A stretch of 55,700 nt of DNA from Patescibacteria group bacterium (GTDB lineage Bacteria > Patescibacteriota > Minisyncoccia > 2-02-FULL-40-12 > IGHO2-01-FULL-4-A), in assembly GCA_038064915.1 (NCBI GenBank), contig JBBTSB010000002.1:1-55700 (forward strand), given 5' to 3'. Of the stretch, positions 9,960 to 25,373 are shown one piece after another; positions within the stretch are counted from its first letter, which is position 1, and each line of letters starts with the position of its first letter. The notes below the pieces were generated by a model. It was not told the origin of the DNA, ran no database searches, and was given only the letters and a program-made list of their open reading frames with translations. Made by a program: the position numbers and the translations under genes.

Positions 9960-10505
9960 ATGAGGCTCAAACTGCTTGGACAATTCGAGAAGCTGGTTGA
10001 GCAATATCAGCGGGATATCGTCAATTTTCACTACCGACTGGTGGGGAATAGGCCCGACGCTGAGGATTTGGCGCAGGAAACATTTCTGAAGGTGTACCAC
10101 AAGCTCGATTCGCTCAAGGATCAGGAAAAAGTGAAAAGTTGGATGTATAGCGTCGCACGCAATGTGACGATAGATTTTTTTAGGAGAAACAAGAACAAAA
10201 GCATCCCGCTTGACAATCTTCTCCTGGAAAACTATGCGAGAGCGACCGCCGTAGATTACCGCGACGAAATTTCATCAAAAGAAATTTCTCAAGAATTGCA
10301 AAAAACGGTCGCACAGTTGAGCACGGAGGATCAGACGATCGTGAAACTGCTTTACTACGAAGGATTTTCGTACAGGGAAATCTGCGACCTTCTCCATATC
10401 AACCAAAATACCCTTAAAAGCCGACTTCATCGTGCACGCAAGGTCTTGTTGGCCGCGATCCAGGCAAACGACCTTCTGCGAGAAGTTGCCATTGAATATC
10501 AATAA
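9960..10505 (+). CDS. ECF-type RNA polymerase sigma factor
   Basis: Region 2 DAEDLAQETFLKVY..VKSWMYSVARN; region 4 YYEGFSYREICDLL..TLKSRLHRAR. Start 9960 is preferred over 9936. Confidence 0.92.
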   Translation: MRLKLLGQFEKLVEQYQRDIVNFHYRLVGNRPDAEDLAQETFLKVYHKLDSLKDQEKVKSWMYSVARNVTIDFFRRNKNKSIPLDNLLLENYARATAVDYRDEISSKEISQELQKTVAQLSTEDQTIVKLLYYEGFSYREICDLLHINQNTLKSRLHRARKVLLAAIQANDLLREVAIEYQ

Positions 10506-22859: not shown

Positions 22860-23117
22860 ATGGCTATAGTAAATTTTACGATTCCAAAAGAGCTTGAGCG
22901 GCAGGTAACCGCCGTGATTAAAAAGCGTGGTTTTGCGAGCAAAGCAGAGTTTTTCCGCTTCAGCGCGATGCGCTTTGTAATGGAAGAGTCTCGAAAACCA
23001 TTTGCCACCCAGGATGAGCGCCGAGCGTACTTAGTCCAGGAGATTGAACGAGAAATTGCACACCGATTCAAGGGGAAAAAATTTCCATCGCTGGAGAAAG
23101 TACTGGCCAATGTATAA
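22860..23117 (+). CDS. Ribbon-helix-helix (CopG-like) antitoxin candidate
   Basis: N-terminal VNFTIPKELERQV...GFASKAEFFR pattern; upstream of and overlapping the toxin-like ORF. Confidence 0.72.
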   Translation: MAIVNFTIPKELERQVTAVIKKRGFASKAEFFRFSAMRFVMEESRKPFATQDERRAYLVQEIEREIAHRFKGKKFPSLEKVLANV

Positions 23118-23454
23118 ACCGCTCTGGCTCCCGCATTTTGGTCGTCAGCTCAAGCAACTGAGCAAGAAATATGTTCATCTCCAAGAAGTCATCACGAAGG
23201 CTTTGCATCGTTTCCGAAAAGATCAAACTGTTTCTCTTGGCGACAATCTGTATAAACTCCGCTTAGCATCGAAAAAGGACATTCCACGCGGCAAAAATAA
23301 ATCATTTCGCCTGGTCTTGCTGGTGTTGGAAACAAAATCCGCCCTGGTACCCGTCACAATCTATTTCAAAGGAGACCGGCGGGACATGTCTGTTCGAGAA
23401 CTCAATGATCACCTTGAAGTTATTCTCACAGAATTACGATCATATGAAAACTAA
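23110..23454 (+). CDS. RelE/HigB-like toxin candidate
   Basis: 114 aa basic protein: F.RQLKQL.KKY, LYKLRL, GKNKSFRLV, IYFKGDR. Confidence 0.68.
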   Translation: MYKPLWLPHFGRQLKQLSKKYVHLQEVITKALHRFRKDQTVSLGDNLYKLRLASKKDIPRGKNKSFRLVLLVLETKSALVPVTIYFKGDRRDMSVRELNDHLEVILTELRSYEN

Positions 23455-24811: not shown

Positions 24812-24844
24812 TATAACAAACGATAGGAAAGTTGATAGTGTTCA

Positions 24845-24873
24845 TTTACACGAATCAATAAGCACGCTATAAT
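24845..24873 (+). promoter_or_regulatory. Promoter TTTACA-N17-TATAAT (predicted leaderless) with palindrome ACGCTA-TAA-TAGCGT over the -10
   Basis: The -10 ends 7 nt before ATG 24881. Confidence 0.7.
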
Positions 24874-24880
24874 AGCGTAC

Positions 24881-25306
24881 ATGGATAGAAAAACATTAAC
24901 TATCCTTGGGGCATCGTTATATGCTTGCGTGGGTACCAAAGCACGGAGAGATTTTCGATCAAAAAATCGATATATTTATTCGATGGAGTTAACAAATTCA
25001 GATCCAAACATAATCAGAAGTTTCTCGACTTTCATGAAAGAGATCATCAGAGCCGACTGGAAGCGAGTAAGAGGACAGTTATTTTTTTATCCTGACTTGG
25101 ACGAGAATAAGCTAAAAGCGATTTGGTCTGAAGCGTCTGGTATTCCTATGGATCAGTTTCAAAAATCGATTTGTTTGAAACAAAAAACAGGAAAGTTTAA
25201 AGCAAATCCTTTAGGAACATTTAAAATTAGATATTCCTGTAAAGAGCATTTCTTAAAGCTACAGGAAATGATTGATAATTTGTGGAGAGGTCGCATAGTG
25301 GCCTAG
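24881..25306 (+). CDS. LAGLIDADG-like (homing endonuclease fold) protein of the CPR tRNA-associated type
   Basis: LGASLYACVGTK helix, ELTNSDPNIIRSF..F, KAIWSEASGIP, GTFKIRY; the last codons are encoded by the tRNA 5' end. Confidence 0.6.
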   Translation: MDRKTLTILGASLYACVGTKARRDFRSKNRYIYSMELTNSDPNIIRSFSTFMKEIIRADWKRVRGQLFFYPDLDENKLKAIWSEASGIPMDQFQKSICLKQKTGKFKANPLGTFKIRYSCKEHFLKLQEMIDNLWRGRIVA

Positions 25307-25373
25307 TGCGCCGCCTTGGAAAGGCGGTATACTCGAAAGGGTATCGAGGGTTCAAATCCCTCCCTCTCCGCCA
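25284..25373 (+). tRNA. tRNA-Ser(GGA)
   Basis: GGAGAGG/CCTCTCC acceptor, anticodon arm CCGCC-TT-GGA-AA-GGCGG, long variable arm, encoded CCA. Confidence 0.96.

Follow-up and report, generated by a model that had tools for sequence, protein, structure and literature searches.

SegB, encoded in the tRNA gene cluster of phage T4, is a free-standing homing endonuclease of the GIY-YIG type and an example of the 'intronless homing' of T4-like phages (PMC2330249; review PMC2988022). The operator of I-TevI overlaps its own promoter and matches the homing site at 15 of 20 positions, as stated in the part of the same review that cites Edgell et al. 2004 (PMC2988022). Group I introns containing a homing endonuclease gene (HEG) occupy the anticodon loops of bacterial tRNA genes (review PMC3984707), and LAGLIDADG enzymes are found in rRNA insertion sequences of bacteria of the candidate phyla radiation (CPR) (PMC11270868). 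Here we describe a small open reading frame (ORF) of the 'NSDP' family that runs into the tRNA-Ser(GGA) gene of a Patescibacteria group bacterium (assembly GCA_038064915.1, contig JBBTSB010000002.1, positions 1 to 55,700 of the forward strand; this whole 55.7-kb stretch is referred to as the window). We consider it likely that the locus is a free-standing, intron-less homing-nuclease cassette at tRNA-Ser(GGA), which carries a replacement 5' half of the tRNA gene. The locus comprises the following features.

24826-24844, + strand: stretch GGAAAGTTGATAGTGTTCA, probably what is left of a displaced tRNA-Ser 5' half after decay; it directly abuts the -35 hexamer.
24845-24873, + strand: promoter TTTACA-17 nt-TATAAT, with 11 of 12 consensus matches.
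24864-24878, no strand assigned: perfect 15-bp palindrome ACGCTATAATAGCGT (ACGCTA-TAA-TAGCGT) over the -10 box, a candidate operator.
24881-25306, + strand: ORF of 141 aa with an ATG start, ending ...WRGRIVA*; 'NSDP' family, putative homodimeric homing endonuclease or DNA-binding protein.
24929-24931, + strand: codon 17, GTG (Val) in place of the Glu of the family alignment (LYACEG to LYACVG).
25284-25306, + strand: overlap of ORF and tRNA, 23 nt, in which the last seven codons and the stop are read from the acceptor stem and D arm.
25284-25373, + strand: tRNA-Ser(GGA), intact and uninterrupted, with the CCA encoded (ARAGORN; Rfam tRNA 57.4 bits).
25311-25327, + strand: anticodon arm of the resident tRNA, CCGCC-TTGGAAA-GGCGG, without the C(A/T)CGC arms of the putative target and possibly a resistant version.

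Together, the sigma-70 promoter, the leaderless ORF and the beginning of the tRNA-Ser(GGA) gene, into which the ORF reads, form a unit of about 0.5 kb. The -35 hexamer TTTACA lies at 24845-24850 and the -10 box TATAAT at 24868-24873, the end of the latter being 7 nt from the ATG, and the stop codon TAG at 25304-25306 falls within the tRNA D-loop. This promoter is the sole credible promoter-like site upstream of the tRNA; with 14 nt between the end of murD and the remnant, no other promoter is evident for the tRNA. The transcript should begin at or beside the ATG, be leaderless and extend across the ORF into the tRNA. RNase P cleavage at 25284 would take the stop codon off the mRNA, and full-length translation would therefore need the unprocessed precursor. 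The seven-residue tail of the protein is predicted to be disordered, with low confidence in the AlphaFold model (predicted local distance difference test, pLDDT, about 39). The palindrome occurs once in the window, and its interpretation as an intrinsic terminator was rejected because no T-run follows it on the + strand and the sole terminator-like prediction is for the - strand. No group I intron or ribozyme was detected at the locus by Rfam (E <= 1), which returned the tRNA besides sub-threshold, chance-level matches to unrelated families. Further copies of the ORF or related nuclease genes were not found in the window; a weak GIY-YIG-like tblastn match at 10353-10448 falls within a sigma-factor-like ORF and was discarded.

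In a large protein collection, the window protein has 126 homologues of 58-88% identity, nearly all of about 141 aa, all annotated as 'hypothetical' and all from Patescibacteria, which share the motifs LYxCEGTK...ELTNSDP...GTFKIRY. An exhaustive profile-free search (E <= 1e-3) extended this family to a superfamily of at least 391 clusters at 50% identity with the motifs LYW/CxEGxK … NSDP..I..F..FLR … WS..TGIP..QF.K … LPxGT..IR, many of them proteins of 210-240 aa with an N-terminal helix-turn-helix (HTH) ahead of the NSDP domain. The window protein matched no entry of Pfam (even at E <= 10), NCBIfam or the PDB sequences; matches in PHROGs were confined to the HTH modules of the longer relatives, and a profile of 68 superfamily members retrieved only HTH proteins from the PDB sequences. 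Between the window copy and its nearest relative at the DNA level, the nonsynonymous difference (pN) was 0.087 and the synonymous one (pS) 0.83, and the family median omega was 0.20 for pairs with unsaturated synonymous divergence (dS). Judged by these values, the NSDP ORF is a real gene under strong purifying selection with old divergences; a chance or spurious ORF was ruled out by the 126 homologues and by a pN far below pS.

Throughout the family, this gene is linked to a tRNA. We collected 29 loci from 185,579 species-representative genomes and 67 from metagenomes (designated below by L numbers where they must be told apart); the former belong to Patescibacteria of several classes, Peregrinibacteria, WS2, Saccharibacteria, Omnitrophota and Margulisiibacteriota. 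Sequence beyond the ORF sufficed for evaluation in 73 distinct loci, of which 70 have a tRNA-Ser(GGA) on the same strand at -69 to +26 nt from the ORF stop codon. The ORF overlaps the tRNA in 39 loci (by exactly 23 nt in 32 distinct loci), ends 0-10 nt short of it in 16, and stops ahead of it in about 44% (31/70) altogether. The frequent C-termini WRDAGVV and WRDARVV arise where a second kind of tRNA-Ser 5' end is translated. Three loci were exceptions: L013, where an intact ORF (L013:318-743) has a decayed tRNA-like tail, WEDVGII*, and no tRNA nearby; L082, where a tRNA-Ser(GGA) follows the ORF directly on the opposite strand (L082:370-886); and L094, where the ORF is a fragment and its tRNA, about 145 nt past the stop of the frame, falls beyond the search range.

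The linkage extends to distant members. Relatives at 36-38% identity still adjoin tRNA-Ser(GGA), and all six distant superfamily members examined lie within 40 nt of a tRNA, two of them at Ser(GGA) and the others at Tyr, Lys and Glu. Among the HTH-fused relatives, some overlap tRNA-Tyr(GTA) or tRNA-Lys(CTT) by 10 nt, and others begin 5-38 nt downstream of tRNA-Glu(TTC).

L111:1501-2209, L114:93-864 (tRNA-Lys), L106:535-1307 and L110:460-1271: HTH-fused relatives at other tRNAs (Tyr, Lys, Glu).

The adjacency of ORF and tRNA, like the promoter and the palindrome, is not due to chance, as each recurs across dozens of independent loci. An earlier note, made from the letters of this DNA alone, had described the 23-nt overlap, the promoter TTTACA-N17-TATAAT with a start near the ATG and the palindrome ACGCTA-TAA-TAGCGT over the -10 box; each is present in the sequence, the overlap recurs at other loci, and the promoter and the core of the palindrome recur in 46 distinct loci. 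Its statement that NSDP-motif LAGLIDADG-like proteins are frequent beside tRNAs of CPR bacteria was borne out by the neighbourhood survey above, and its proposal of an intron-less cassette tied to a tRNA gene gained support from this linkage as well as from the displaced 5' halves, the empty or alternative alleles and the degenerate copies described below.

Insertion appears to have left scars upstream of the ORF. Left flanks matching a tRNA-Ser 5' half at p <= 0.01 were found in 13 of 70 distinct cases, compared with 0.7 expected, and nhmmer searches with a tRNA-Ser(GGA) model gave partial matches to positions 1-34, 1-35 or 1-43, whose ends lie 0-43 nt upstream of the ATG. Preserved junctions fall at tRNA positions 33-36, in the anticodon loop; these end points are the only hint of site-specific double-strand cleavage, which in LAGLIDADG enzymes leaves 4-nt 3' overhangs. 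In L003, L033, L036 and L051, …C(A/T)CGCTTG is followed by the -35 hexamer; in L083 and L023, …CGCTT or …CGATT leads into the ATG, which stands exactly at the former anticodon; in L108, 8 nt separate …CGCTT from the ATG; and the junction of L088 reads …GCGCTTGGA. In L114, which belongs to the tRNA-Lys subfamily, a decayed tRNA-Lys 5' half ends in …GGCTCT, 3 nt before the ATG (p = 0.008). A search downstream of the resident tRNA in 82 loci gave no 3' tRNA remnants. The overall layout is thus an old 5' half up to position 33-36, the ORF with or without its own promoter, and a complete tRNA, which is what we would expect from a break in the anticodon loop that is repaired off a donor carrying the ORF just 5' of its tRNA. 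In L007, a locus of Berkelbacteria, the remnant has the acceptor sequence GGTGGG, as in other Berkelbacteria loci, and the resident tRNA has GGAGAG; therefore, the incoming unit replaced the tRNA here. At the left junction of L003, about 45-55 nt before the ATG, we also observed that CGCTTG (the stem end and loop start) is tandemly duplicated between the remnant and the -35 hexamer.

We compared the murD-tRNA-Ser locus of the window with those of its syntenic relatives, a comparison that the earlier note had proposed as a search for an empty allele. The window MurD has no homologue above 64% identity, and close relatives were therefore unavailable; the best homologue of the ORF reaches 88%. 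In L102 (MurD 59%), a native promoter stands directly before a tRNA nearly identical to that of the window and no nuclease gene is present; this allele is empty. The same native promoter occurs in L103/L104 (MurD 60%), followed by a tRNA 5' fragment and a GIY-YIG ORF (Pfam 50.4 bits) that ends within a full tRNA. L105 (MurD 64%) contains a 343-aa gene with an HTH and a double-motif LAGLIDADG_3 region (L105:2507-3601; 28.5 bits, cutoff 22.5), which overlaps tRNA-Ser(GGA) by 23 nt, as the window ORF does. This canonical LAGLIDADG_3 family has 776 relatives, and many of their C-termini resemble translated tRNA 5' ends (…GGRVV, …GAGAV, …DAGVV, …GEVA, …GGVA, …RGRIVV). Reading into a tRNA hence seems common among CPR homing-endonuclease genes and, judging from these loci, at least three nuclease families use the 5' part of tRNA-Ser(GGA) as a landing site. 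As separate observations, a stranded 5' fragment broken after GCATA (D-loop, position 14) was seen in L103 (L103:5783-6118) and in L051 (about 100 nt before the ATG), followed in both by a GC-rich insert of 29-35 nt able to form two hairpins; in L103, the tRNA fragment resumes beyond the insert (GTGGTCTA…) and continues into the start of the GIY-YIG ORF.

Decay was seen as well. Degenerate NSDP copies, N-terminally truncated, frameshifted or prematurely stopped, stand beside intact tRNAs in L092, L093, L094, L029/L096, L077 and L041. The spread of the loci over the species genomes is sparse, and the flanking genes vary between loci. Like a free-standing HEG, the cassette occupies one specific conserved site and is present or absent among relatives, distant ones with MurD identities of 59-64%, and, as in a course of invasion, decay and loss, its degenerate copies occur alongside intact ones under purifying selection.

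The core of the palindrome, CGCTA(T/C)A(A/C)TAGCG, is kept in 46 distinct upstream regions of Patescibacteria-type loci, with a TTG/TTT-type -35 element exactly 17 nt upstream of TATAAT and a spacer whose sequence itself is unconserved. T occupies the first two positions of the -35 element in 40/46 and 41/46 regions, and the end of the -10 box is 7-8 nt from the ATG in 40/46. From this conservation, the site is a genuine promoter with a dyad-symmetric site centred on its -10 box, and its mRNA would be leaderless, given the 7-8 nt between the -10 box and the ATG. The loci of Omnitrophota and Margulisiibacteriota have neither promoter nor palindrome, and there the ORF directly follows the tRNA fragment; in L083 and L023/L084 (Omnitrophota-type), which have no separate promoter, the native tRNA promoter would transcribe the 5' half, the ORF and the tRNA as one RNA. 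In the empty allele, the native tRNA promoter (L102:5700-5745) reads ACGCTACAGTAAGAGCT around its -10 box and has the left arm ACGCTA in common with the cassette palindrome, a likeness that may be chance or may hint at the origin of the cassette promoter.

The displaced halves point to a candidate target. CGC stands right before the anticodon loop in 7/8 displaced halves versus 8/66 resident tRNAs (Fisher p = 2.6e-5; p = 1e-3 with the four palindrome-type loci counted once), which suggests the target arm C(A/T)CGC-TTGGAAA-GCG(T/A)G. Such a 17-bp near-palindrome would suit a homodimer. Its arms and its 5+7+5 geometry are shared by the candidate operator, C(A/T)CGC-TATAATA-GCG(T/A)G, which matches the target at 13/17 positions, in a comparison made after the fact and with a target that is itself inferred. 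By analogy with I-TevI, the palindrome is most likely an operator for self-repression of potentially toxic expression. Most cassette-linked tRNAs carry other arms, for example CAGAC-CTGGAAA-GTCTG, or CCGCC…GGCGG in the window, which would explain a putative immunity of the resident tRNAs.

The window copy differs from its relatives at residue 17. The earlier note had remarked that the expected acidic residue is missing here (LYACVG), and this is real and unique to the window copy, as Glu17 is present in 91/92 full-length members and at every other locus. The substitution, E17V, requires one A-to-T change. In I-CreI, the D20N mutant is catalytically inactive (PMC2655683), and if E17 is the counterpart of the acidic residue that binds metal in the LAGLIDADG motif, the window copy is probably nuclease-dead. 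It deviates at four highly conserved columns, compared with a family median of one; apart from residue 17, its ORF is intact, as are promoter and palindrome. This pattern fits early decay after fixation. The protein may still bind the operator and could act as a repressor. The further suggestion that it has been domesticated as an autoregulator found no specific support, a single unique substitution being more simply read as a first step of decay.

Taking these results together, we propose the following mechanism. A homodimeric protein, probably LAGLIDADG-related in its N-terminal half, would bind the anticodon-arm DNA C(A/T)CGC-TTGGAAA-GCG(T/A)G of a cassette-free tRNA-Ser(GGA) allele and cut it in the anticodon loop, and repair would copy the cassette from the filled allele. 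The old tRNA 5' half, up to position 33-36, would be stranded upstream and then decay, while the cassette would bring a new 5' half and so restore an intact tRNA, now driven by the cassette promoter. The protein would repress its own expression at the palindrome over the -10 box. The copy in the window probably no longer cuts, and its tRNA would still depend on the cassette promoter. In this scheme we infer the nuclease activity, the exact target and cut site, the dimerisation, the autorepression and the immunity of the resident tRNA.

Several observations speak against a mobile nuclease cassette. Its presence and absence were seen between distant relatives, the empty allele having a MurD of 59% identity, and not within a species. 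Synonymous sites are saturated even among the closest copies; no sign of recent transfer across lineages was found, the top identity between labelled lineages being about 70%; no relatives were found on viral contigs; and purifying selection as strong and long-lasting as that described above would also fit a host function. Four loci (L004, L010, L024 and L083) carry the cassette, yet their resident tRNA has a 'sensitive' CGC-TT arm. In the window itself, the stretch 24826-24844 resembles tRNA-Ser 5' halves marginally (Smith-Waterman p = 0.05-0.18). It abuts the -35 hexamer, the very spot of the clear remnants in L003, L033, L036, L051 and others, and the spacer to which it belongs is homologous to the corresponding spacer of the syntenic relative L105 (p = 0.013). 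Of the earlier description of this stretch as tRNA-Ser-like, the weak likeness therefore stands, and its reading as a remnant is strengthened by position and by the homology to L105, to the level of probable only.

The fold is a further difficulty. For both the window protein (pLDDT 91.9) and an HTH-fused relative (pLDDT 94.6), AlphaFold predicts the order helix–strand–strand–helix–strand–helix–(loop)–strand–helix, that is, a-b-b-a-b-a-b-a, versus the alpha-beta-beta-alpha-beta-beta-alpha order of solved LAGLIDADG structures. The earlier note had called the protein LAGLIDADG-like and had named the lack of a fold match as a result that would refute its reading; with Foldseek, neither of these high-confidence models gave a match in the PDB at E <= 0.001, and no LAGLIDADG entry was in either top 50. 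The weak top PDB matches (OmpA-like, YfiB, MotB-C and IspF; template-modelling score, TM, <= 0.43) were set aside as meaningless. The BFVD gave no significant match either, and its best matches by TM (0.37-0.45, E >= 0.1, weak) were mostly LAGLIDADG enzymes. Besides these, the only positive signals were sub-threshold matches to Pfam LAGLIDADG_3 in 8 of 68 distant relatives (best E 2.9e-4); of two batches of relatives scanned to place these matches, the first, of ten, gave none and the second gave three. In these three, LAGLIDADG_3 positions 3-55 cover the LYxCEG…NSDP…helix region in register; residues 20-68 of P0145, for instance, align with LAGLIDADG_3 positions 11-55 at 16.1 bits, compared with a cutoff of 22.5. 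An hhalign comparison with the canonical LAGLIDADG_3 family of L105, with the HTH trimmed, gave at best a probability of 14.5%, over the FTNSDP..helix..strand region; the method is insensitive here, as a control (domain 1 versus domain 2 of the canonical family) was also undetected. In the model of the window protein, E/V17-G18 lies at the end of helix 3-17 and is followed by a strand, and LYxCEG is only loosely LAGLIDADG-like. From the alignments and the models, we regard the N-terminal half as probably LAGLIDADG-related, of unproven membership in the family and with a fold that may have undergone substantial remodelling.

We weighed three other explanations of the locus. The best of them, which we regard as unlikely, is a host-beneficial, vertically inherited regulator of tRNA-Ser(GGA) transcription, a domesticated LAGLIDADG-like protein that is no longer mobile and that binds the palindrome and so tunes both itself and the tRNA. 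WhiA is a domesticated LAGLIDADG-like protein. Strong purifying selection with saturated dS, the lack of detectable recent horizontal transfer, the obligatory co-transcription of the gene with the tRNA, and an operator-like palindrome conserved over the sole promoter of the ORF-tRNA unit are all what such a regulator would show. However, a regulator of this kind is difficult to reconcile with the occurrence of only 29 loci in the 185,579 species genomes, with nearest syntenic relatives that are empty or have unrelated nuclease genes at the same spot, with truncated and frameshifted copies beside intact tRNAs, and with displaced tRNA 5' halves that indicate repeated insertion. The putative catalytic Glu, kept in all full-length members but one, would be needless for a pure repressor.

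The second explanation assumes action on RNA: the protein would be a maturase-like or processing factor for the ORF-tRNA precursor, aiding, for example, tRNA 5' maturation, and would be encoded in cis to meet its substrate. Some LAGLIDADG proteins are maturases, the ORF and the tRNA would share one transcript, and RNase P cleavage would fall within the ORF. We nevertheless consider this very improbable, as Rfam detected no intron or ribozyme, the ORF stops before the tRNA in 31/70 loci, most tRNA-Ser(GGA) genes do without the ORF, and the palindrome in the DNA and the scars of insertion both speak for a protein that acts on DNA. Finally, tRNA genes are classic integration sites at which partial tRNA duplications flank integrated islands, but a remnant of some other mobile element (an integrase-type island or a transposon), with the ORF as a passenger or accessory DNA-binding protein, is just as hard to credit for an insert of about 0.5 kb with one ORF, no terminal inverted repeats seen, no integrase or transposase in the window or the related loci, and a duplicated 5' half in place of a 3' end, with no 3' remnants in 82 loci.

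Two other arrangements in the window were recorded. At 22860-23454, directly upstream of murD, two small overlapping ORFs (85 aa and 136 aa) on the + strand have a toxin-antitoxin-like layout. At 271-635, on the - strand, a cluster of four tRNA genes (Ser-CGA, Arg-CCG, Leu-TAA and Cys-GCA) lies downstream of rbfA/infB-like ORFs and has no nuclease-like ORF attached.

A homing cassette at tRNA-Ser(GGA) may be one instance of a wider group. It is possible, if somewhat short of probable, that the NSDP superfamily is an unnamed class of homing endonucleases without a recognisable counterpart among solved structures, whose members would attack the dyads of tRNA anticodon arms, with a subfamily per tRNA (Ser-GGA, Tyr-GTA, Lys-CTT and Glu-TTC), spread without an intron by what may be called '5'-half replacement' and repress themselves at an operator that mimics the target. 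In the searched full-text literature outside subscription, we found no description of the family, of tRNA-gene homing in CPR bacteria or of a 5'-half replacement architecture. If the cassette acts as proposed, it would represent a new route for a selfish nuclease gene into an essential, intron-free RNA gene, by way of a spare 5' half, a rebuild at the DNA level and a takeover of transcription. An unannotated superfamily (no Pfam family) is placed by its systematic association with tRNA genes in CPR bacteria, Omnitrophota and Margulisiibacteriota. NSDP proteins would be small (141 aa), probably dimeric, putative sequence-specific DNA binders or cutters with predictable palindromic targets, and their putative natural pair of operator and target may offer a way to study the separation of binding from cleavage. 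In the annotation of these phyla, an ORF that runs into a tRNA gene is to be taken as a real gene and not as an artefact.

Among known systems, the islands and prophages of tyrosine integrases resemble the cassette in that they insert in a tRNA gene, carry a part copy, rebuild the gene and leave a partial duplicate. They duplicate the 3' end, measure kilobases and encode an integrase, whereas the cassette duplicates the 5' half, measures 0.5 kb and has no recombinase. With LAGLIDADG homing endonucleases (the homodimeric I-CreI type, Pfam LAGLIDADG_3 and the enzymes of CPR rRNA insertions), the NSDP family shares, in a loosely similar form and except for the Glu of the window copy, a helix ending in an acidic residue and Gly (LYxCEG), two strands, a strand end with 'xTNSD' and a further helix, as well as a single-domain size, a palindromic target (putative for the cassette) and the same hosts, CPR bacteria. 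It differs from them in having no above-threshold Pfam match and no Foldseek match to solved LAGLIDADG structures, and in a helix and a loop of about 26 residues inserted between its third and fourth strands. Unlike the LAGLIDADG enzymes of CPR rRNA insertions, the cassette would target a tRNA gene and not an rRNA gene, and has no intron.

The regulation of I-TevI offers a parallel to the palindrome. In both systems, a site that overlaps the promoter resembles the homing site (13/17 for the cassette, against its putative target), and the differences fall at the positions that would be cut. I-TevI is a monomeric GIY-YIG enzyme in a group I intron for which binding and repression are proven, whereas those of the cassette are deduced from its sequence, and the candidate operator of the cassette is a perfect palindrome that has its centre in the -10 box of a leaderless gene. 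SegB and intronless homing resemble the cassette in gene organization: a nuclease gene without intron or intein stands beside conserved genes, namely tRNA genes, and is sporadic among relatives, and it is preferentially inherited together with flanking DNA, as would also be the case for the cassette. SegB is a phage GIY-YIG enzyme whose gene is situated between tRNA genes, with no partial tRNA copy left behind; in contrast, the cassette is chromosomal and encodes a protein with no recognised nuclease fold. It is fused to a single, specific tRNA gene, for which it brings a replacement 5' half and whose transcription it captures. The HEG-containing group I introns of bacterial tRNA genes have the insertion point in the anticodon loop in common with it, and in both the tRNA stays functional. 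The introns rely on a ribozyme and splicing, whereas at the cassette locus, which has neither, a second copy of the 5' half restores the gene at the DNA level.

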